From positions 217,413 to 281,412 of the forward strand of contig CAZEKG010000001.1 of the NCBI GenBank assembly GCA_964512625.1: a DNA stretch of 64,000 nt, given 5' to 3'. The stretch comes from an uncultured Gammaproteobacteria bacterium. GTDB taxonomy: Bacteria; Patescibacteriota; Patescibacteriia; 2-01-FULL-39-33. Below are positions 1,013 to 56,119 of this stretch, in pieces; the first letter of the stretch is position 1; each line of letters opens with the position of its first letter. A program made the position numbers and the translations under genes. Under the pieces are notes generated by a model, which was given only the letters and a program-made list of their open reading frames with translations, did no database searches and was not told the origin of the DNA.

Positions 1013-3550
1013 TCATTTCTTGCCTTTCTTCGCCGTTAGTTTCTTCGCCTCGGCGATTATTTCTTTCGAAACATGACTAGGCAAATCAGCGACTTTTTCG
1101 ACGCAATGTCCGCCCGGATAAGCTTTAACCGCTTCACCACTCTTAGTCATACCCCAAGCTGAAACCATAACCCCTAAATCGCGCAGCTTATTATCCTCTT
1201 TTATATAAGCACTAAGATCGTCAACTTCACCATCCATAAAAGCCATAACCGCGCGAACCCTCGGCTTGGATTTTTTCTTTTTCCCAGCCTGAACCTCGTC
1301 ATTCAAATCAGCCTCAATTACTTCTCTAACTTTTACTAGGCCGAGATGCGCCGGCGTCCCGCCGCCGATATTAGACTCCAAGCCCTTCCAAACCGCGTAT
1401 TGCTCTTTCGGTCCCCAACTTGATCCGGAAGACTTAATAACGCCGGCCGAGCCGGCTTGAAATGCGGTTAAAGAAGATTTTACATCTAAAGGCGAAATCA
1501 GCTTGCCGGCTCGCTGAGCGATGCGAGTTTTTTCGGCAAAGGAATACAAAGCGTCTTGAAGAATAAAACAAGCAAGTTGCTGTTCGTCTTTCTTTGGCAA
1601 GCCGGAAGATTCGTCAATATAATTCATAGAACTACTGCGATCAACGACGAAATGAATATCCAACCCGCTGTAATCCTGGATCATTTTATTAGTCTTCGCT
1701 TCCATCGCATACCCCTCAGGGTCGTTCGAGCCAGTCCTAATATCCCGGCCAATCATCGTCCAGCTATCAGGCTCATCGCCTATTGACCTTTTAACCGGGC
1801 CTTTAGTCGTCGCTTTCGGGACTAGATTAGTCTCGACGATTTCTTGGAACTGCGTTCTTAATTTTTCTAAGACATTAGCATACTTGAGCCTAGCCTGCCT
1901 TATTTTTTCTCTTACTATCAAAGCTTCCTCGTAAGAACATTCTGCATCTTTTGCCCACTCCCTCGCCTCCCAATCTTTTTCCCTTTCCCGAGTCTCAGCT
2001 TCTTTTTCCGCTTCTTGCATTTTACGCTTCAAATCATCAAGCTGTTCCTCCGTCAATTCCGGCGCTTCCTGTTCGCCGAAGTCACCTTCTCCCGGCTCAT
2101 CCTCCGGCAGCTCATCAGGCATTTCTTCATCCGCGTTCGGATCGCCCTCCGGCGTTGCGTCGAAACGATGCCATTTTTTATCCTCAGTATTATATACCTC
2201 CGTCCAAGCGTGCCGATTGCCCGAATTCAACGATGCGGCGCCATTGCTATCCTTACTCTTGACATAATTGCCGGTCGCCAACCTGGCTTTCACTCCCGAA
2301 GCGGATAATAAGTTTATATAATATGCGTTAGCCACATCGCAATCGGCTTGGCGATGTTCCTCGATTCCCGCGAAATAGCCGACCGGATGATTCTGATAAA
2401 CCTTATTGAACGAGCTGTCATTAGAATAAGTCAAGTAATTCCTAACGAATCTTTTAAGCTTCCTAGCCTTAACTAAATTATCCGTCTCATTTTCTATTTC
2501 CGCGAGCGCTTTTCCGGCGTCAGCCCCCGCATAAGGCGATTCGACCGCTAAGTCATTTTCATTTACTTCTAGCCGTCTTTCGGCTATCGAGCTTTCCGCT
2601 TCGCCGATCATAACTGTAAAACTGATTGGGAATTTTTCCAAGCCTCGCGAATCGATAAGCCAATTGCCATTGCCATCAATTAAAAACTTTAGTTCATCGC
2701 TGGCTTTTACAGTCCTGATATCCGGACGATAGCCGTAAGGCAAAGGGAAATCAGCCAATCTTCCGCCATTAACTTTTCCGCGGAAAACCTTTTTTGAATC
2801 TTCTTTAAGCTCGATTTCCGGTCCAGCAGTCAGCTCGCCTCGTTCAGTCTTCCAACGGGAACCGCCGGCATGTTTATTATAAACATTTTCGCGATAATAG
2901 CCGCCAAAAAACGGATGAACTGAAAAATAACCCTTATTTTCTTCCCCTTCATTTTTCTCCATTTCATCCATAGAAGTATCCATATCATCTCGGCTATCGG
3001 GCGGCATTTCCTCGTTACCTTTTTTTTCCTGACTTTCTTCCTCAACTTTTTCTTCATCTCTTAATTTTCTTAAATCACTGCGATAAGCGTAGTTTAAAAG
3101 CCCGGCAATCTTTTTATTAAAATAATCGTTCCTAACGCTTGACTGAGTGTTAGGCGAGGTTAAGACCTGAAGAGCATTAACTCTTCCTTCCTCGGTTTCC
3201 ACTCCCCTCAATTCGCTTATAACATCTTCCCAGACTTTCGAAGGCGAATAATTGTCATCTTTGGCGGCAGCTAGCAACTCTCTGACTAATCCGTCATATT
3301 CGCTCAAACCGATATCCCTCTGGTTATAAGCCGCATCGCCATTTTTTAAAGATTCGGACGAGCTAAAAATCATCTTGTCCAGCTCCTTCTTAAAATGCCT
3401 TTCCGCCGGCGTGCCCCTTGATTGCCAATCGCGCTGAGCCTCGACATCCTCGGAAGTCCTTATCCGCTCACGCCAAAAACCGGAAGATTTTTTTATTTCT
3501 TCCGATCCATTTTCTAAAATATTAGCTTTATTTTTTTCAACACTGTCCAT
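1013..3550 (-). CDS. cytoplasmic transglutaminase-like cysteine protease domain + C-terminal von Willebrand factor A (vWA) domain protein
   Basis: Cys-His-Asp transglutaminase core (QADCDVANAYY...NRHAWTEVYN...WHRFDATP). vWA MIDAS motif DRSSSM plus GGGTPAHLG. A coiled-coil/acidic linker joins the domains. No signal peptide. Confidence 0.7.
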   Translation of the reverse strand: MDSVEKNKANILENGSEEIKKSSGFWRERIRTSEDVEAQRDWQSRGTPAERHFKKELDKMIFSSSESLKNGDAAYNQRDIGLSEYDGLVRELLAAAKDDNYSPSKVWEDVISELRGVETEEGRVNALQVLTSPNTQSSVRNDYFNKKIAGLLNYAYRSDLRKLRDEEKVEEESQEKKGNEEMPPDSRDDMDTSMDEMEKNEGEENKGYFSVHPFFGGYYRENVYNKHAGGSRWKTERGELTAGPEIELKEDSKKVFRGKVNGGRLADFPLPYGYRPDIRTVKASDELKFLIDGNGNWLIDSRGLEKFPISFTVMIGEAESSIAERRLEVNENDLAVESPYAGADAGKALAEIENETDNLVKARKLKRFVRNYLTYSNDSSFNKVYQNHPVGYFAGIEEHRQADCDVANAYYINLLSASGVKARLATGNYVKSKDSNGAASLNSGNRHAWTEVYNTEDKKWHRFDATPEGDPNADEEMPDELPEDEPGEGDFGEQEAPELTEEQLDDLKRKMQEAEKEAETREREKDWEAREWAKDAECSYEEALIVREKIRQARLKYANVLEKLRTQFQEIVETNLVPKATTKGPVKRSIGDEPDSWTMIGRDIRTGSNDPEGYAMEAKTNKMIQDYSGLDIHFVVDRSSSMNYIDESSGLPKKDEQQLACFILQDALYSFAEKTRIAQRAGKLISPLDVKSSLTAFQAGSAGVIKSSGSSWGPKEQYAVWKGLESNIGGGTPAHLGLVKVREVIEADLNDEVQAGKKKKSKPRVRAVMAFMDGEVDDLSAYIKEDNKLRDLGVMVSAWGMTKSGEAVKAYPGGHCVEKVADLPSHVSKEIIAEAKKLTAKKGKK

Positions 3551-3584: not shown

Positions 3585-4199
3585 TTACACGCTTCTGGCG
3601 ATTTTCTCTAAAAAGCTTTTTACTGCTGTAAAGTCTATATTTCTCTGATGCTTGAATTTTATCGGTTCCTTATTAATATCTTTAAAATATACTAAACTTT
3701 TTAAGACAAGATTGATATCTAAGTCGGGAAACTTTTTACTAAACACAAGCAAGATTTGACTAATCGTCAAATCTTGAAAAATAAAATACAAGTCAACATA
3801 ATCCTTATTTGTCGCGCGACTGACGATAGCTGACAATTTCATGCAGGCGATATCGACAATAGAGGCAATATTTAAATTTTCTTCTTTAATCGTCGGACTG
3901 ACTAACTTATAAGGATAAGAGAAAAAACTGATTTTGATATTATTGTCAATAAATACAGTTAAAGTATCTTTTTCATCCTGAACCTTGACTACCCGATAAT
4001 CGGCAAAAATTTCCTTTACTTTTTTAAATAAAATAGCGGTATCAATCGACTTAGGAGAAAAGAAGTCAAAATCTATACTATCGCGATGCCCCAATTGCAA
4101 AGCCAAACCCGTACCGCCGGCCAGATAAAAATCGGCTTTGAAATTTTTTAACAACGGAAGTATTTGACGCCTTTTAGCGTCTAAGATATCATAGAACAT
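3585..4199 (-). CDS. nucleotidyltransferase, AbiEii/DUF1814-like (type IV toxin-antitoxin toxin family)
   Basis: N-terminal minimal-NTase motif LAGGTGLALQLGHRDSIDFDFF (GG[TS]...DxD), ~200 aa. Tightly linked to a small upstream ORF. Confidence 0.55.
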   Translation of the reverse strand: MFYDILDAKRRQILPLLKNFKADFYLAGGTGLALQLGHRDSIDFDFFSPKSIDTAILFKKVKEIFADYRVVKVQDEKDTLTVFIDNNIKISFFSYPYKLVSPTIKEENLNIASIVDIACMKLSAIVSRATNKDYVDLYFIFQDLTISQILLVFSKKFPDLDINLVLKSLVYFKDINKEPIKFKHQRNIDFTAVKSFLEKIARSV

Positions 4200-4208
4200 A
4201 AAATTTAA

Positions 4209-4478
4209 TTAAAAACGAGAACGAGTTAATTCTCTCTCATTAATATTTAAAATCAGCGACCAATAATGCAGCGACTTATCATTTAATTCTCCCTTAGCGC
4301 CGTAATTAATAACCGCCTTCTTAATGCTTGATTTGGGATAAAAATCGAATAGCCAATCAGTAGCTTTCTTGTCGCCGAAATTAAGCAAATTCAAGATTAT
4401 CCTGACCCTATCCTTTTTAAGGTCAAGCTTACTGAAATCATTGAACCAAAAATACTTTTTTATAAACTTTGGCGGCAT
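4209..4478 (-). CDS. hypothetical 89-aa protein, possible antitoxin/partner of the AbiEii-like NTase
   Basis: Co-directional ORF with a 10-bp gap to the NTase gene. I recognise no family. Confidence 0.4.
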   Translation of the reverse strand: MPPKFIKKYFWFNDFSKLDLKKDRVRIILNLLNFGDKKATDWLFDFYPKSSIKKAVINYGAKGELNDKSLHYWSLILNINERELTRSRF

Positions 4479-4525: not shown

Positions 4526-5572
4526 TCAATCGCCCGCATACCCCTTAATTACACCTAGAACGGCGTCATATTCTTCGCTGGAACCGATAATCTCCCTGTA
4601 AGAGCATAAGCTGTCATAAAGATTATCATCAAAGCCGGACAATTTCTCATTAAGCTCCTTTTTAGCCTTTAAAACCGTTTTGGGCCTTGGCCAAACCTTC
4701 AAGCCGTTGGTTTGAAGCCCTAAAACGTCGATAACTCCTGGAAATTGGCAAATATCTATTTTAGACTCAGGGATTTCTAATCCCAGCCTCTCTTTAGTAA
4801 AAGAACGGATCATTTTAACCGACTTCTCCGCAACTGGCCGATTGCCAGCCAGAAAAAGCAAGTCATCATTATACCTGATATAATGCTTTATTTTCAATTC
4901 TTTCTTAATATGCCAATCAAGCTCGTTAAGATAAATATTGGCTAAGACCTGGCTAGTTAAGTTTCCTAAGGGCAACCCCTTGCCATTTTCGCCAAAACTG
5001 ACGATTACCTGGCTTATGATATTTGAAATCAACTCATTCTTAGTTCTCTTTCTTAAAATAGCATTTAAAATATTATGATCTATGTTGCTGAAATATTTTT
5101 TAACATCCATCTTAACGGCTAATGTCCGGCGGCTGCGATACAGCCGAAAACAATTGCCGATAAAATATTTCCTAGCTAAATGAAGTCCCTTATTCGGACG
5201 GGAAGCGTAGGAATGGAAGTAAAATATTTGATCATATTTATGAAAAAGATAATCGAAGATGATTTGATGGACGACCCTGTCCCTGACCGAGGCTACATAA
5301 ATATCACGCTTCTTCGGATCGTAAATCCTAAAATGCTGATAACCGCCATGGCGATAACGACCGCTTGCCAAGTCATGATATAATGAGTTTACTTCGCTCT
5401 CAAGATTAAGCCAAAACTCCCTAACTAGCCTTTGACGAAGTTTTCCGCGACGGAATTTTTCCCATTTCCAACATATATTTTCTTTACCAAATAATAATTC
5501 ATATTCTTCTATGAGTCTCCCCCCCCCCCCCGACTCTTTTAAAGCTTCCATTTTTTCACAAACTCCGCTCAT
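4526..5572 (-). CDS. diversity-generating retroelement (DGR) reverse transcriptase
   Basis: RT motifs: YIRYNDDLLFL (motif C, YxDD-like) and the DGR-typical LPLGNLTSQVLANIYL (I/LGxxxSQ). It sits immediately downstream of a TR that has a cognate VR. Confidence 0.9.
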   Translation of the reverse strand: MSGVCEKMEALKESGGGGRLIEEYELLFGKENICWKWEKFRRGKLRQRLVREFWLNLESEVNSLYHDLASGRYRHGGYQHFRIYDPKKRDIYVASVRDRVVHQIIFDYLFHKYDQIFYFHSYASRPNKGLHLARKYFIGNCFRLYRSRRTLAVKMDVKKYFSNIDHNILNAILRKRTKNELISNIISQVIVSFGENGKGLPLGNLTSQVLANIYLNELDWHIKKELKIKHYIRYNDDLLFLAGNRPVAEKSVKMIRSFTKERLGLEIPESKIDICQFPGVIDVLGLQTNGLKVWPRPKTVLKAKKELNEKLSGFDDNLYDSLCSYREIIGSSEEYDAVLGVIKGYAGD

Positions 5573-5975
5573 TTTAAAAAGTTATTTTCTATACCGCGAA
5601 ATACTTAAATTAACTAAAGACTTTCCTAAGGTTTACCGCTACGGCTTAGGAGAAAAAAGCCAAAACGCCATCTTAAGCATAATTGAAATTACTTCTCAGG
5701 CACTTTATAGCCGGCAACCATTAAAAGAGCCTTTGATACTAAAGCTTATCGGCATCATACAAACCTTGCAGCTTTTTATCCGCTTGGCTTATGACGAAGA
5801 ACTGATAAGCGAGCGGAACTTTTTTACCCTAAGCGATCAAGTAATCGAGCTAAACAAAATGGCGGCGGGCTGGCTAACCTCCGTTCGCTCGCCATCCCAG
5901 CCTAAAGTCGAACCCTCGCCGAGAAACGGAAGCCGCTGTTCGAATTCGCATCCACATCATCCCTGTTCAAGTTGA
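5511..5975 (+). CDS. avd: Avd-like accessory protein (four-helix-bundle / 23S rRNA-IVS protein family). Start uncertain; the 3' end reads through the TR.
   Basis: DFPKVYRYGLGEKSQNAILSIIEITSQA...LILKLIGIIQTLQLFIRLAYDEELISERNFFTLSDQVIELNKMAAGWL resembles the FPKxE+YGLxSQ+RRAAVSI...SLxELxxQL...GYI four-helix-bundle pattern of DGR Avd proteins. It lies on the strand opposite to the RT, TR and target. Confidence 0.45.
   Translation: MSLPPPPDSFKASIFSQTPLILKSYFLYREILKLTKDFPKVYRYGLGEKSQNAILSIIEITSQALYSRQPLKEPLILKLIGIIQTLQLFIRLAYDEELISERNFFTLSDQVIELNKMAAGWLTSVRSPSQPKVEPSPRNGSRCSNSHPHHPCSS
5519..5531. repeat. 13-nt homopolymeric C tract (G13 on the coding strand of the RT gene, codons 14-18)
   Basis: Direct read: tctc + c x13 + gactc. 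It encodes the SGGGG stretch of the RT. Confidence 0.9.
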
Positions 5976-6034
5976 GCTGGGAATCGTCGGAATTCCAATT
6001 GCCGTTCGGCACATTGCCGTCAGAAGCGACCGGC
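5914..6034 (-). repeat. DGR template repeat (TR), 121 bp
   Basis: Aligns to 6381-6501 with 15 mismatches. Fourteen are at positions where the TR minus strand has A. In the VR frame the TR carries nine AAT/AAC codons. Confidence 0.85.
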
Positions 6035-6362: not shown

Positions 6363-9300
6363 TTAAATCTTGCGAGGGATCCTCACCGAGAAACGGAAGC
6401 CGCTGCGCGAATGCGCATCCACAACATCCCCGTCCAAGACGAGCTGGGAAGCGTCGGAAAACCAAATGCCGTCCGGCACACTGCCGTCAGAAGCGACCGG
6501 CAGGTCAATAAAGCGGGAAAAAGTTCCGCCAGTGCGCCTATAATCATCAAGCGGTACGAGATCGTTTAATGCTTTGGCTTCTAAAACGCGATCTGTAAAA
6601 CGATTTTGTAGGATAAGATACTCGGCAATAGAAGTGATATTGACCATTTCTAAGGTTATGCCTTCATTCAAATCAATAAACTCTTGCTTGATCTTTTCGA
6701 ATTCCGCTTTTTGAGCGCCTAAGGCTTTATTCTTCGTTCTCTCCTCAGGCGATTGAGAGGGAGTAATTAAGGAAATATATGGAGATTCGGGAATGCTTAG
6801 GACTGCCTGGAATAGGAGTTCCGGATCTTCGCCGGCCTTTAAAAAAGGGGCGATTTCTGCTTTTAACTTATCCTTTTCCTTTATAGTCATATCAGGCTTC
6901 CCGGCGATCTTCTCCATAAAAGAAATGAGACTATCGATATAATCCCAAAGATAAGTATCGGCGACTTGACCTTCCTGCCCATCTTTCTTAAATCTCGGCT
7001 TAAGTTTTTCTATAGCCGTTTTAAGGCCTTTTATTTGAGCTAAACGCCCAGGCACGAAAAGCGGGATCTCGCCCAATTCCATTCGCGATCCGATAAGCTC
7101 GATATCTTCCTCGCTAAGATTAAAATCTTCCATATTTTCCGGCAAATGTCCGGCCATATTCCTATCGAGCCAAAAAGTTACTTCTTGATAGGCCCGCCTG
7201 TCTTTAGATAATATTTCCTGGAGATCGACTTCTAAATCCTGTTGTTCCGGATTATTCGCTTGATCTATTATTCCCGCTTCCTTAAAAGCTTCATGATAAG
7301 GATTTTTAGCGTTGAAAACAGTAAACTGGTAATTGCCATGCAGCCTTTCCAGCTCGTCAAGACTGTCGATTATTTCCCGATCGCCTTTTCCCGACTCGAC
7401 TAGCCATTTTCCTTTAAGCTCAGGAAACTTAGCGCACTCTTTAATTAAGCCGACAAAAGTAAAAGTCAAATCTTCTCCTGCCTTGTCCGGAGAAACATAC
7501 CGCCCTTTCGGCGCGGCCACCTTATCGAGCGATACTTTGACCCTTTTCTTGCCTCCATAATCGATGAATTCATCGGCGTATTCGGGGGCAGCCGGCGTAT
7601 TATCTTTTATTTCCGCTTTTCTTGGCACTCTGGGAGATAACTGCGCCAATTCCTTATCCGTTATGATATCTAAGCTTATCTTAGGGCCGGCCAAGGGTTC
7701 CAGCTTCGCATTCCCGCCGCCGGCAATAAGTCCATATTCAGCAAAAAGCTTAATGTAAAGATCCTTGTCTTCGAGATAATCATCAGCCGTAAAAGCGGTT
7801 TCCAGCCATTCGACTAATTTTTCGGAGAGAAATGATTTTAAAGACTTACCCTCTCGAGCCAATAGGCGGTATTCTTTTAACCAAAGAAAAATATCGCCCG
7901 GAGTTAGGACGCTGCCCGAAATCAGCGCTTCCGGATTGCCTCGGCTCAAGATATTATCTCGTCCGTAAAGGTTTTCGTAAGCTTGGGAAAGCGCTTGGGC
8001 TAAGCGCCAAAGTTCGCCGCCGGCTTTAGGATCGCCATCGAGAACTTCTTCCGTAATATTCTTACCGTTTTCTTCCTTATGTTTTTCATTATATATCGGC
8101 CCTAATTCCGCCTTGTTCGCCTGAATACGATTAGAATCATCCATCAGGGCGACTAAAAAGGTTTCGAACAATTCCGGGTTTTCGGCTGACTGAGGGAAAT
8201 ACTCGACCGGAATCATTTTCATTTTTCTTTGGATTTCCGGCGTATAGCTGGTGCGGCGGAATCTTGAGCCAGCCGGATTCTGGGCGCCGAGCACAATTGC
8301 TTTGGATAAGACAAGGTCTTTCGGATCGGCGCCGTTAGTAGAATAGCCTGTCGGCTCTCCGGAGCGAAGCCGATCGCACAAAGTCGCTAAAGTCCCGATA
8401 TCTTCCGCTTTATTCGCCTCATCGATAAAAACCGCCAAGCCCTGATGTTCGGGAGATGCTTGATCAGCTGTCTTTTTTCCAGTCAAACCGTATAAGACCG
8501 GGCCGTAATCCGTTCCGCCCCTAAGATTCTTATCGGCTAAAAGCTCTCTATCAACTTTCATTCTTTCATCAGCTTCCTTAATAATCGGCGCCTCGCCGGT
8601 AAAAAGCTGGGCGACAGCCTTGGCTAAAGTCGTCTTACCGGTACCCGATTGCCCTTCCAGGACGACCATTCTTAAAGTATTGGCCGAAGCGACAGCATCT
8701 TCTATCGCTTCCAATATCTTATGCCGGCTTTTAGTCCACATAAAATGATCCGGCCCGTCCAATTGTTCTTTTAACTCTTTAAGCTCGCTGAAAACCGCCC
8801 TGGCTGCCAAGTCCGGATTTTTAGCTAAAAGCTCAGCTTGCCTAGCTTTATTTTCCGCCATGGCCGAGGAAGCAATAGCTAATTCTTCCAATACCGCGCC
8901 TTTTTCTCGGCCCTGGCGCAAACCCTCAAAACGCTTCTTTTGAAGCTGGGCTTCCTCTTCTTCCCAAATATCCTCGTCATTCCTAAGCTCTTGATATTTC
9001 GGCCAATTGCCGTTAACCGAAGCCCATTGCTCGGCATACTTTTTCATCCCTTGCTCATAAACTAATCTTGTTTCTTCATCGCTGTACATCTCTTTAAGTA
9101 AAGAGAGAATTCTGGCGTTTTCCAGACGAGATTTGAATTCCTGAGTTAAGGGATTTTCGTCATCGAATATATCCATGAGAGCGAGCGACTGGGAATCTCC
9201 AGACTCTCTTTTTTCTTTAATATACTCAAGCCAAGAGTCCTTAAAGCTCTGCCAGAAACTCCAAAGAGCTTCCGCTTTCGCTTCCGGGCCTTTTTCTCTA

Positions 9301-9428
9301 AGCTTTTTTAGGGAAAACTCCCTGATTTTTTTCTCTTTCGGAGATTGTTCTTCTTTAGCAGGAGTGATTTCCTGAGCTGTCTTCTCAAGCGAGAAAATCG
9401 ATTTTATTTTCGGGTTTTTTTCCGGCAT
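6363..9428 (-). CDS. DGR target protein: MoxR-like AAA+ ATPase with C-terminal variable (CLec/FGE-like) domain; no signal peptide
   Basis: Walker A VLEGQSGTGKTTLAKAV, Walker B/sensor VFIDEANKAEDIG (the DEaNrA pattern of MoxR/AAA_5), and a coiled-coil N-terminus. The C-terminus ...DGSVPDGIWFSDASQLVLDGDVVDAHSRSGFRFSVR is encoded by the VR. Confidence 0.8.
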   Translation of the reverse strand: MPEKNPKIKSIFSLEKTAQEITPAKEEQSPKEKKIREFSLKKLREKGPEAKAEALWSFWQSFKDSWLEYIKEKRESGDSQSLALMDIFDDENPLTQEFKSRLENARILSLLKEMYSDEETRLVYEQGMKKYAEQWASVNGNWPKYQELRNDEDIWEEEEAQLQKKRFEGLRQGREKGAVLEELAIASSAMAENKARQAELLAKNPDLAARAVFSELKELKEQLDGPDHFMWTKSRHKILEAIEDAVASANTLRMVVLEGQSGTGKTTLAKAVAQLFTGEAPIIKEADERMKVDRELLADKNLRGGTDYGPVLYGLTGKKTADQASPEHQGLAVFIDEANKAEDIGTLATLCDRLRSGEPTGYSTNGADPKDLVLSKAIVLGAQNPAGSRFRRTSYTPEIQRKMKMIPVEYFPQSAENPELFETFLVALMDDSNRIQANKAELGPIYNEKHKEENGKNITEEVLDGDPKAGGELWRLAQALSQAYENLYGRDNILSRGNPEALISGSVLTPGDIFLWLKEYRLLAREGKSLKSFLSEKLVEWLETAFTADDYLEDKDLYIKLFAEYGLIAGGGNAKLEPLAGPKISLDIITDKELAQLSPRVPRKAEIKDNTPAAPEYADEFIDYGGKKRVKVSLDKVAAPKGRYVSPDKAGEDLTFTFVGLIKECAKFPELKGKWLVESGKGDREIIDSLDELERLHGNYQFTVFNAKNPYHEAFKEAGIIDQANNPEQQDLEVDLQEILSKDRRAYQEVTFWLDRNMAGHLPENMEDFNLSEEDIELIGSRMELGEIPLFVPGRLAQIKGLKTAIEKLKPRFKKDGQEGQVADTYLWDYIDSLISFMEKIAGKPDMTIKEKDKLKAEIAPFLKAGEDPELLFQAVLSIPESPYISLITPSQSPEERTKNKALGAQKAEFEKIKQEFIDLNEGITLEMVNITSIAEYLILQNRFTDRVLEAKALNDLVPLDDYRRTGGTFSRFIDLPVASDGSVPDGIWFSDASQLVLDGDVVDAHSRSGFRFSVRIPRKI
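6381..6501 (-). repeat. DGR variable repeat (VR), 121 bp, covering the last ~40 codons of the target gene
   Basis: See TR. The VR ends 15 nt before the stop codon. A single non-A mismatch (TR C vs VR T) lies 5 nt from the 3' end, in an IMH-like position. Confidence 0.85.
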
Positions 9429-33495: not shown

Positions 33496-33577
33496 TGCCC
33501 GAGGTGAGACTCGAACTCACACACCTTGCGGTACACGATTTTGAGTCGTGCGCGTCTACCAATTCCACCACTCGGGC
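33496..33577 (-). tRNA. tRNA-Leu (anticodon CAA), long variable arm
   Basis: Acceptor GCCCGAG/CTCGGGC, anticodon loop CTCAAAA, long extra arm, T-arm GTGAG-TTCGAGT-CTCAC. Confidence 0.75.
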
Positions 33578-33597
33578 AATTTTAAATTAACAACGAT

Positions 33598-33672
<75 letters not shown>

Positions 33673-33699
33673 GTAAAATAGTTTAAAAAGTCAAAAGTC

Positions 33700-33775
33700 C
33701 ATAAGGTCGAAAGTTAAAAGAAAATGCGGAAACTTAGATTCTTTATGGACTTTTAACTTTATGGACTTTTGACTT
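33700..33775. repeat. 16-bp perfect inverted repeat (agtcaaaagtccataa / ttatggacttttgact) plus a local direct repeat of tggactttt between two tRNA genes
   Basis: Read directly from the sequence. Confidence 0.7.
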
Positions 33776-33781
33776 GTTTTG

Positions 33782-33854
33782 TTGCGGGGACAGGACTCGA
33801 ACCTGTGACCTTCGGGTTATGGGCCCGACGAGCTGCCAACTGCTCTACCCCGCG
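33782..33854 (-). tRNA. initiator tRNA-fMet (anticodon CAT)
   Basis: C1xA72 mismatch, three consecutive G-C pairs in the anticodon stem (TCGGG-CCCATAA-CCCGA), T-arm ACAGG-TTCGAGT-CCTGT. Confidence 0.75.
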
Positions 33855-38719: not shown

Positions 38720-40201
38720 ATGAAAAATATCAAAGCTCTTCTTATTGGCTTAACAGCTATCGCGGTTTTTTTCCTCGTTTACCAAATCCACTGGTCGTAT
38801 CACCTCCCTTATCATGTCGACGAATGGCATCACATCACTGAAGGGATTAGAGTCGGAAACTATGGCGAATACCTAATGGACTATACTGCCAAAGGACTCT
38901 CGGACGGCTTTAGCGGCACAGAGTTCGGCTTCCATATTTTTCTTTTTATCATCAGCTGGTTTACTAACCTGATCAATATTTACCAATTCCTGCCGGCTAT
39001 TTGGGCGGCCATAGGATCGCTAATAATTTTTTTTGTAACCTATAAAAAGTCAGAAAGCTTTTTCGTCGGCTGGCTATCCATGCTCTTTTTCGCTTCCATT
39101 AAATCTAATGTCAACTTGATGGGCATTTGGTTCTTTACGCCATTATCCTTCGCCATACCATTTATTTATTTATTTTTTTATTTATTTACCGAAGGCCTGG
39201 AAAAAAGAAACCGGAAATACCTGCTCGGTAGTATCGCCGTCATGATTCTGCTTTGCCTCACTCATGCCATCTCCTTTCTTTTTGCCTTGCCAATACTATT
39301 AATCGTTTCGGCTGTAAATTACAAATACATTATAAAGAAGATAAAATTCTTCTCTTTATTCTTATTAGTCCCTTTAGCTGGTCTAATTTTCTATAAATTG
39401 ACTCTCGCCTTGACTTGGAGCGAGCTATTAAGCCACCTCTCCAGCCAAATAATATTCAAGTTAGGCTGGGGCGTCTTAGAAAGACAAAATCAACCGACGG
39501 AATTATACAGTTTAGCCGGCTACGCCCTCGCCTTTATCGGTTTAGCTATCGCCTTTGTTATTAAGGGCGAATCAAAAAAATATTTAGCCTACCTTATCTG
39601 GCCACTATGGCTCCTCGCCGAAATCGTTTTTTATCGACTTACCAGTTTCTCACCTCTAGCTCCATACCAAAGAAACTTTTATTACTTCGTCCTAGGCTTA
39701 CCCTTCTTAAGTGCTTTAGGAGCGAGCTATATCTGGCGAGGCGTTAAATTTTATATCGGAAAAACCCCTCTCTCGGAAATAGAAAAAAAATATGCCAAGA
39801 TTTTATTTATGATCATTTTTATTCCTGTAATTATCCTCTTCGCTTTTAAAGATTATTATAAGACAGAAAAGGCAGTCTCTCTTTATAAACTAGTAAGCGA
39901 CAAAGATATTAGCACTTTAAATTATTTAAAAGGCCTACCCAAAGGCAAGGTAATGGCAACTCCATTTATCTCAACTACTCTATACCCAATGAGCGGCCAT
40001 AAGCCAATAGGTACTTTAGTTTTTTACGGCGATCCGGAAATAGTAAATCAATTTTTTATGGTCGAAGATTGCGCCTTCCGGCAAAATATCATCAACCAAC
40101 ATAAAATAGACTATGTGATTTCCAAATGGAATATGGGTTGCGGCTGGAAAACTCTTTACAATAAAGACGATTACATTTACGATACCTCGATAAGTCAGTA
40201 A
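38720..40201 (+). CDS. polytopic integral membrane protein (possible GT-C glycosyltransferase / polymerase)
   Basis: More than 10 TM helices; I recognise no motif. Confidence 0.5.
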   Translation: MKNIKALLIGLTAIAVFFLVYQIHWSYHLPYHVDEWHHITEGIRVGNYGEYLMDYTAKGLSDGFSGTEFGFHIFLFIISWFTNLINIYQFLPAIWAAIGSLIIFFVTYKKSESFFVGWLSMLFFASIKSNVNLMGIWFFTPLSFAIPFIYLFFYLFTEGLEKRNRKYLLGSIAVMILLCLTHAISFLFALPILLIVSAVNYKYIIKKIKFFSLFLLVPLAGLIFYKLTLALTWSELLSHLSSQIIFKLGWGVLERQNQPTELYSLAGYALAFIGLAIAFVIKGESKKYLAYLIWPLWLLAEIVFYRLTSFSPLAPYQRNFYYFVLGLPFLSALGASYIWRGVKFYIGKTPLSEIEKKYAKILFMIIFIPVIILFAFKDYYKTEKAVSLYKLVSDKDISTLNYLKGLPKGKVMATPFISTTLYPMSGHKPIGTLVFYGDPEIVNQFFMVEDCAFRQNIINQHKIDYVISKWNMGCGWKTLYNKDDYIYDTSISQ

Positions 40202-55679: not shown

Positions 55680-56068
55680 GGGGATGCTTTGACTCGATAG
55701 GAGTTTCAAAGTTCCAAGAAGGCAAGCCGAGCTTGATGGCTGACTCGTTAAACCGGTCATCAAAACATAAGTGTAAAAACCACTTTGGCTAAAGTTGCTT
55801 CCGCTTTCCGCGGAATGGCTTTTGCCCCAGTTATGGCCTAAAAGGCATCATAACCATCGCCCTGCCAACGCCTGATACGCAGTCAGCGGTGTTATATTAT
55901 CGGGCTGGACACAAACCTTCTTAGTAGTTGGTGTCGAGAACCTTACCTAAGTAAGTCCTCGGCCGTTTTTTTCTTTTTTAAGGCCGCGGTCTGATTTAAA
56001 AAGAAGAAAAGCTTGTAAACCGACTTGGATCTTGCTTCTAGACAGGGGTTCATCGCCCCTCATCTCCA
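55680..56068 (+). ncRNA. ssrA: tmRNA (transfer-messenger RNA)
   Basis: Immediately 3' of smpB. The 5' GGGGAUG pairs with 3' CAUCUCC-A; T-arm-like AGGGG-UUCAUCG-CCCCU; ~389 nt. Candidate tag ORF ...AKVASAFRGMAFAPVMA*, frame not verified. Confidence 0.6.
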
Positions 56069-56119
56069 CAAAAGCTAATCATCTTAAGCTTCCATCAAAA
56101 AATTCCATAACAAAAACTA

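Follow-up and report, generated by a model that had tools for sequence, protein, structure and literature searches.

What controls the activity of a diversity-generating retroelement (DGR) in nature? A 2026 study of a reconstituted Bordetella element calls DGR regulation in the wild 'an exciting frontier', and a large metagenomic survey classes many DGRs as 'inactive'; in the parts of that survey reached by term searches, neither Avd nor frameshifts are ever mentioned. The question is raised in a concrete form by a 64,000-nucleotide stretch of contig CAZEKG010000001.1 (assembly GCA_964512625.1), hereafter the window. It carries a DGR whose reverse transcriptase (RT) gene and gene for an Avd-like accessory protein (avd) diverge from overlapping 5' ends, and a run of thirteen C residues (G on the opposite strand) lies within the overlap. 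We consider it probable that this tract is a phase-variation switch that acts by slipped-strand mispairing, gates the DGR and stands at ON in the assembled sequence. The evidence throughout is comparative and comes from consensus assemblies.

Results

A homopolymer in two overlapping genes

The features at the junction are as follows.

5519-5531, C13 on the plus strand and G13 on the minus strand: homopolymer tract, the proposed slipped-strand switch, read directly from the sequence
5511-5572, 62 nt: antisense overlap of the 5' coding ends of avd (plus strand) and RT (minus strand), from open reading frame (ORF) coordinates and translations
4526-5572, minus strand: DGR reverse transcriptase gene, 348 amino acids (aa) from the ATG at 5572; Pfam RVT_1, E 1e-18
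5511-5975, plus strand: Avd-like accessory gene, a 154-aa ORF lying antisense between the template repeat (TR) and RT

An earlier note on this DNA had reported a 13-nt G/C homopolymer early in RT, translated as SGGGG in RT and as PPPP in the Avd-like ORF. The sequence bears this out: there is an exact run of thirteen C at 5519-5531, and both translations agree. On the plus strand the tract is preceded by tctc and followed by gactc. No other G/C run in the window (41% G+C) exceeds 6 nt, and a first-order Markov model predicts about 0.001 runs of at least 13 nt there. The minus strand reads TCG GGG GGG GGG GGG AGA (S-G-G-G-G-R), which is RT codons 14-19 from the ATG at 5572, or codons 7-12 if counted from the second ATG at 5551, where the public annotation of the RT (P0001) begins to give a protein of 341 aa. 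The plus strand reads CTC CCC CCC CCC CCC GAC (L-P-P-P-P-D), codons 3-8 of the Avd-like ORF; C13 itself spans avd codons 3-7 and RT codons 14-18. The two ORFs are divergent and the tract sits inside their 62-nt overlap, with the codons of both strands aligned opposite each other. It has the properties expected of the repeat in a contingency locus, being pure, with a unit that is not a multiple of 3, and placed in a 5' coding region. The only other notable simple repeat in the window is an (ATTT)7 tetranucleotide at 39160-39188.

The tract was replaced in silico by 9-17 bases and both ORFs were translated. Lengths of 10, 13 and 16 gave full-length Avd and RT; with any other length RT ended after 19-25 aa and Avd after 9-22 aa. 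A gain or loss of one base left 20-24 aa of RT and 10-21 aa of Avd. The earlier prediction that a change of one base in either direction would end RT after about 20 residues is confirmed by these stubs, and the effect exceeds it, as Avd is also truncated. The first canonical in-frame start (ATG, GTG or TTG) beyond the tract is at RT residue 68 and Avd residue 75, and because none comes sooner neither frameshifted protein would be expected to be rescued. Thus any length but 10, 13 or 16 would frameshift both proteins, since the tract lies in the overlapping 5' ends with no canonical start close downstream. The assembled allele of 13 is in frame for both genes, that is, ON. On these translations one tract would gate both RT and Avd in the window, the predicted simultaneous loss of Avd being an addition to the earlier note.

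Homopolymers of at least 10 nt are error-prone, and a miscount in sequencing or assembly would mean that the true length here is not 13. One relative (L073) has a 10-N scaffold gap that abuts its G12 tract, a sign of assembly difficulty at such sites. Against this, a length of 13 suits the frames of two independent ORFs, one on each strand, and in four clade relatives, too, the tract keeps both genes in frame. As the tract itself is conserved, at most the count would be wrong and not the feature, and with 13 fitting two ORFs a miscount is unlikely to alter the conclusion. The assembly error that the earlier note offered as an equal possibility is therefore unlikely as the main explanation, all five pure tracts of the window's sub-clade being in frame for both genes, and we give a true length other than 13 only the slimmest of chances. 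The 'poly-G' read artefact of sequencers was rejected separately: the tracts are internal with conserved coding sequence on either side, they turn up in the assemblies of many studies, and (GT)n repeats provide a parallel.

Frame-shifting repeats recur at the junction of related loci

The comparison covered 160 loci with related RTs (161 with the window) from species-representative genomes and metagenomes, nearly all of them from Patescibacteria, the candidate phyla radiation (CPR). The RT nearest to that of the window is 54% identical. A divergent adjacent avd with overlapping 5' ends was found with a local Avd profile at 131 of the 161 loci and is the standard architecture of the clade.

A pure simple repeat of 7-49 nt occupies the avd/RT junction in 70 of the 161 loci, the window included. 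At 32 of the 160 related loci it is a poly-G run at the 5' junction of RT, read on the RT strand and 7-13 nt long (mode 10). A further 37 loci carry a (GT)n repeat of 12-41 nt, read as (CA)n on the avd strand (34 loci), (TGTC)4 (one locus) or a pentanucleotide repeat (two loci). None of the units found there, poly-G, (GT)n, (TGTC)n, (CCTGT)n and (TCTGT)n, is a multiple of 3. The length of the junction G-run is bimodal, either 4 nt or fewer or 7-13 nt, with no locus at 5-6 nt. Such repeats are concentrated at this one place: 32 of the 46 G/C runs of at least 7 nt in 770 kb of related loci fall within a single 165-nt junction interval, and no GT/CA repeat of at least 10 nt was found elsewhere in 777 kb of related loci. 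The repeat always follows the conserved avd ATG and precedes the first conserved Avd residue, in a segment where repeat-free relatives have 5-7 ordinary codons; in-frame examples read MSNNNKSV-HTHTHTHT-DSNL.. and MNNYPSEGS-(GQDRT)n-GNDFNIPIF... Differing repeat chemistries at a single site, each capable of shifting the frame, form the classical signature of a contingency locus.

On a tree of the RTs, built by the unweighted pair group method with arithmetic mean (UPGMA) and read with Fitch parsimony, the repeat state is clustered and requires at least 16 gains or losses. Identity among the poly-G-bearing RTs falls to 32% (median 50%). That pure tracts persist or recur across such divergence argues for maintenance of mutability.

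Two other runs were seen in relatives. The diverged relatives L048 and L124 have an in-frame G9 inside RT, about 540 nt into the gene and at the same position in both, which encodes GGG in the loop before the conserved motif GLPIGN(L/V)TSQ and is possibly a second kind of repeat switch within DGR RTs. Both the L151 and L156 assemblies have a C8 run in the gene downstream of RT, about 1430 nt downstream of RT residue 20; its position suggests the N-terminal region of nusA.

The repeats disrupt the avd frame

An intact in-frame avd ATG is present at 81 of the 84 repeat-free loci (96%). Where a repeat is present, the avd start is in frame at 15 loci and out of frame at 41, and at 7 it is ambiguous because of a possible downstream GTG or TTG start. 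Frame disruption is thus specific to repeats, as the repeat-free controls are nearly all intact. Nor does it come from homopolymer sequencing error alone, since the dinucleotide-repeat loci show a like pattern (9 in frame, 25 out). The distance from a (GT)n repeat to the RT ATG downstream of it is 8-26 nt (43 nt in L129). Judged by these frames, the gene most consistently gated across the family appears to be avd and not RT, with RT probably gated too wherever its start sits upstream of the repeat, as in the window. In avd, L093 carries a frameshift (A5 versus A6) with respect to L017.

Tract length differs between near-identical assemblies

Two pairs of loci have 400-nt flanks that are 100% identical and differ in nothing but the (GT) tract. 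In L115 and L118 it is 21 and 23 nt, which places avd OFF and ON, respectively; in L104 and L105 it is 15 and 13 nt. Larger sets were available for two RT lineages. One of these, a Curtissbacteria lineage (RT P0124), is represented by 10 assemblies from 10 samples (L172-L181) with an identical RT protein and 0-2 mismatches per ~1.8 kb of flank. Four have G9 and an Avd of 119 aa that begins MPPPTDFTLDIPIF; five have G10, which leaves Avd as a 9-aa stub, and one further assembly has an interrupted tract. The gene calls follow the tract, with avd (119 aa) annotated in 4 of 4 G9 assemblies and 0 of 5 G10 assemblies. In the second lineage (RT P0143), with 10 assemblies from 10 samples and 0 mismatches per 1100 nt of RT, one is G9 (ON), six are G10 and three G11 (OFF). 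No indel other than the tract was seen in the compared stretches of these loci; the same loci have two or three A/T runs of 7 nt each, mostly outside those stretches. Separately, the near-identical L151 and L156 differ by G9 versus G10 and by a compensating T4 versus T3 six bases off, and so share the same out-of-frame offset.

The state of the tract can be set beside the activity of the element. The remaining DGR components of the window are as follows.

5919-6034, minus strand: template repeat (TR), from alignment to the variable repeat
6386-6501, minus strand: variable repeat (VR), at the 3' end of the target gene
6363-9428, minus strand: DGR target gene, 1021 aa, a P-loop nucleoside triphosphatase (NTPase), Pfam AAA_5, E 2e-6, with the VR at its C-terminus

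The RT and the TR/VR pair identify the element as a DGR. Over a 116-nt core, 14 positions distinguish TR from VR, all of them TR adenines (minus strand), and no other base differs. Hence the window's DGR is seen as having been active, and it looks recently so. The P0124 lineage has two VR haplotypes with 20 differences, all at TR adenines, and an unchanged TR, from which it follows that its DGR has been active. G9 and G10 are each present on both VR haplotypes; the tract must therefore have changed length more than once within this lineage. An element like the GC block associated with initiation of mutagenic homing (IMH) was also considered for the window tract and rejected: some 345 nt separate the tract from the TR end upstream of it, and no GC block marks the point where TR and VR cease to match.

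The window's own sub-clade

The sub-clade to which the window belongs is recognised by 'IFSQTPLILKSY' in Avd and 'MSGVCEK..' at the start of RT. Five of its members have pure tracts, of 13 nt (window), 11 nt (L164 and L171) and 10 nt (L168 and L002), and all are in frame for RT and Avd. There is an ON bias in this sample, because L164 and L168 were found via in-frame RT proteins. Among the tractless relatives, L162/163, L169 and L001 have no Gly/Pro residues there, and the rest spell them with mixed codons, given below.

In all nine distinct relatives of the clade that were examined (L002, L161, L162/163, L164, L165/166, L167, L168, L169 and L171) the avd Leu that faces the RT ATG is encoded by CTC with AT after it, so that the CAT/ATG of RT is preserved. 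The conserved RT N-terminus MSGVCEK is for the most part the antisense shadow of a conserved Avd helix. In L002 an avd-synonymous change makes a stop in the RT extension, and RT begins at a later ATG, which also precedes the tract.

Observations that weigh against a switch

Several observations count against a heritable frame switch, or temper the numbers that favour it. Many of the related loci are interrelated and some are the same contig in two collections, and the counts are not independent. Length variation is known from related lineages, and the window lineage is a single assembly with length 13 only; an identical RT (348-aa or 341-aa form) occurs once in the protein collection, in a one-member cluster on one 284-kb NCBI contig. 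Differences between assemblies could in part be homopolymer miscounts, although these are unlikely to be all of it, since the (GT)n cases vary too and no A/T run compared in the same loci was seen to change. Further, the in-frame state is the minority in relatives, at 15 of 56 scorable loci (~27%), which is about the random-frame expectation and is also compatible with a mechanism indifferent to the frame of the DNA. Of 28 poly-C loci, 16 carry a single surplus base when counted from the ATG, a possible sign of +1 recoding. The mixed Gly/Pro codons of some relatives and the base composition of the repeats, both described below, belong here as well.

CCC-C is a +1-prone site, and long homopolymers promote transcriptional slippage. 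RNA polymerase slippage, or +1 ribosomal frameshifting on CCC-C, would make the tract a constitutive attenuator that keeps Avd (here also RT) low and not a heritable switch. Such recoding would account for the prevalence of out-of-frame genomic states in relatives (41 versus 15), the extra base at poly-C loci, the finding that 6 of 8 diverged 'ATG-C(n)' loci are C10 where the in-frame length would be C9, and VR diversification in the P0124 lineage, whose consensus avd is often OFF. The window tract, however, is in frame for both genes and needs no recoding. In-frame G9 is found in 4 of the 10 P0124 assemblies, so the extra base is not fixed, and (CA)n, tetra- and pentanucleotide repeats, which to our knowledge are not slippage or frameshift motifs, share the site, with both offsets found among (CA)n loci. 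Programmed frameshifting is marked by a conserved out-of-frame arrangement; here the window is in frame and the offset varies within a lineage and between loci. We judge recoding an unlikely explanation for the tract; transcriptional slippage or +1 recoding may still contribute or act in place of the switch.

The composition of the repeats is harder to accommodate. All 70 junction repeats are G- or GT-rich and adenine-free on the strand of RT and the TR transcript, and the complementary orientation never occurs. A pure frame switch does not predict this, and we can offer no explanation. It would fit a repeat that acts at the RNA or DNA level, in the TR-to-RT transcript at the RT start or shortly before it, where it could affect the folding of DGR RNA, the start of RT translation or the geometry of a promoter, any effect on frame being secondary. 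The place of (GT)n a short distance upstream of the RT ATG and the antisense relation of avd to the TR-RT transcript point the same way. Neither a promoter spacer nor a defined RNA motif would, however, be expected to vary over 7-49 nt and between repeat classes; the window tract has no promoter-like hexamers on its flanks, and no Rfam match was found in the region. This makes a primarily RNA- or DNA-level role very unlikely. Promoter spacing was also tried in its own right and rejected as the main mechanism: a sigma-70 scan gave 3 sites in 1.2 kb against 1.7 expected, with none at the junction, and repeats of 7-49 nt do not fit a 16-18-nt spacer.

In three close relatives the Gly/Pro residues are kept by mixed codons, GGC GGT GGG / CCA CCG CCC in L161, GGA GGT in L165/166 and GGT GGA in L167. 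The earlier note had held that a single tract length in all reads, together with orthologues that conserve the tract as in-frame Gly codons with synonymous interruptions, would refute a switch. These relatives do have interrupted Gly codons, which agrees with a part of that; L002, L164, L168 and L171 have tracts of 10-11 nt that are pure and in frame. We read the interrupted versions as decayed or locked tracts, and their codons show that the Gly/Pro peptide can outlast the homopolymer. A functionless low-complexity linker would explain them differently: protein tails tolerate Pro/Gly, codon homogenisation gave the homopolymer, and out-of-frame relatives are decaying or misassembled. The structural comparison agrees with this to the extent that the best solved-structure match of the RT, chain 8ub7_A (E 8e-31, query residues 31-314), aligns its residue 16 with query residue 31, which puts the Gly run at the very N-terminus of the chain, outside the conserved core. 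(The chain is deposited only as 'Reverse transcriptase'; we take it to be the Bordetella phage bRT, which the entry label does not say.) The scaffold gap abutting the L073 tract could be read likewise. A linker does not explain why a single site should hold four unrelated repeat classes, none with a unit divisible by 3, why lengths are bimodal with none at 5-6 nt, why starts are intact at 96% of loci without a repeat and ~27% with one, why repeats stay pure down to 32% RT identity, or why the G9/G10 change recurs on two VR backgrounds of an active DGR. We therefore find a linker very unlikely indeed.

Other components and neighbouring genes

The Avd-like ORF matches Pfam bAvd (PF22296) with E 3e-8 and 34.4 bits, under the 40-bit gathering cut-off. 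A search of the protein collection with it returned 3 homologues, the window ORF itself not being among them; two homologues (P0121 and P0122, 67-70% identity) have a precomputed PF22296 match. A sequence search of the PDB with the window Avd gave nothing meaningful. The order on the minus strand is the AAA_5 NTPase gene ending in the VR, then TR, then RT. The final ~19 Avd-like codons (5919-5975) run antisense through TR, so a TR-to-RT transcript would run antisense along all of avd.

An AAA_5 gene upstream of avd/RT is also found in related loci. Synteny is conserved in the window, L161, L162, L165 and L169: AAA_5 target, avd, RT and then a large VWA and/or transglutaminase-core protein (1013-3550 in the window, minus strand); the VWA protein may be a functional partner of the diversified NTPase. 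Between RT and the next conserved gene lies a toxin-antitoxin-like pair, DUF6922 and an AbiEii nucleotidyltransferase (3585-4478 in the window, minus strand), and L161 has a different pair, Polbeta and HepT, at the equivalent place (1479-2146). At gathering thresholds Rfam gave only transfer-messenger RNA (tmRNA) and tRNAs in the window, away from the tract, and no family at the junction; the tmRNA gene is at 55680-56071 and a cluster of three tRNA genes at 33496-33854.

Discussion

The phase variation that the earlier note proposed as a candidate is now supported by comparative evidence, which can be summarised as (i) poly-G at the same site in 32 of 160 relatives; (ii) other frame-shifting repeats in 37; and (iii) tract lengths that appear to toggle the frame between otherwise identical assemblies. 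We propose that during replication the homopolymer would gain or lose a base by slipped-strand mispairing. Any length other than 10, 13 or 16 would frameshift avd and RT at once, which would shut off cDNA synthesis and mutagenic retrohoming, until a later slip restored the DGR. The Bordetella phage DGR is known to require Avd and RT. By analogy, loss of either would be expected to silence the window's DGR, and we infer that the window tract varies within its own population, with length changes that are frequent and reversible.

On balance we also favour, with less assurance, a wider proposal, in which a whole clade of Patescibacteria DGRs is bet-hedged: a repeat kept pure by second-order selection would heritably switch targeted mutagenesis, and in the window's sub-clade one tract would gate avd and RT together. 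More speculatively, the adenine-free G/GU-rich repeat might also function in, or be remodelled by, the retroelement's own RNA/cDNA pathway.

If the tract is a switch, it would provide a sequence-readable ON/OFF marker of DGR state in metagenomes, explain the silence of apparently intact DGRs and be an example of one hypermutable device gating another. There is also a warning for annotation, as avd is missed or truncated at these loci and out-of-frame alleles make it invisible to gene callers. No description of repeats at avd/RT was found in the full-text literature on DGR or Avd with phase variation, homopolymers or frameshifts, a search in which the 2017 CPR DGR paper and one 2026 preprint were not covered. 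The novelty lies in the combination, in which the overlapping gene starts of a DGR's own machinery contain a hypermutable repeat.

The closest parallels are the contingency genes of Campylobacter jejuni, Neisseria and Haemophilus. These share a pure 7-13-nt G/C tract or a di-, tetra- or pentanucleotide repeat just past the start, with a unit that is not a multiple of 3. They also share length polymorphism that flips the ORF among near-identical genomes, many of which are caught OFF. Unlike those genes, which encode surface or restriction-modification functions, the genes gated here would be the RT and Avd of a targeted hypermutation system. The window tract lies in the antisense overlap of two divergent genes and would gate both, and the hosts are environmental Patescibacteria, not host-adapted pathogens, with switching inferred from sequence.

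As a retroelement, the nearest comparison is the DGR of Bordetella phage BPP-1 (mtd-avd-TR-brt). Both have a TR and VR that differ only at TR adenines, with the VR closing the target gene at its 3' end. The Avd-like ORF is a candidate for the four-helix accessory protein, and the RT is closest among solved structures to the chain that we take to be bRT. In contrast to BPP-1, the window's avd points away from RT, in inverted orientation, and the 5' ends of the two overlap; its TR is antisense to the 3' end of avd, a hypermutable repeat lies in the gene starts and the target is an AAA_5 NTPase.

In Haemophilus influenzae hifA/hifB, a (TA)n repeat between divergent fimbrial genes acts via the spacing of the -10 and -35 promoter elements. 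The likeness is that one simple repeat, between or within two divergent genes, controls both. That control is transcriptional, whereas the window repeat is inside a coding overlap and would act on frame, and lengths of 7-49 nt in relatives are incompatible with a spacer role.

Programmed slippage and +1 frameshifting (dnaX, prfB and insertion sequence (IS) elements) also place a homopolymer at a frame junction, and the ATG of many relatives is one base out. The window tract differs in being in frame, the offset is not fixed within a lineage, and di- and longer repeats occur at the site.

Finally, phasevarions and switchable mutators are known, in the form of phase-variable mod methyltransferases and repeat-controlled mutL alleles. 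There, too, a hypermutable repeat gates a master enzyme that affects many phenotypes or the mutation supply, a two-tier control. The difference lies downstream, which in the DGR would be site-specific retroelement mutagenesis of one target gene and not genome-wide methylation or mutation.

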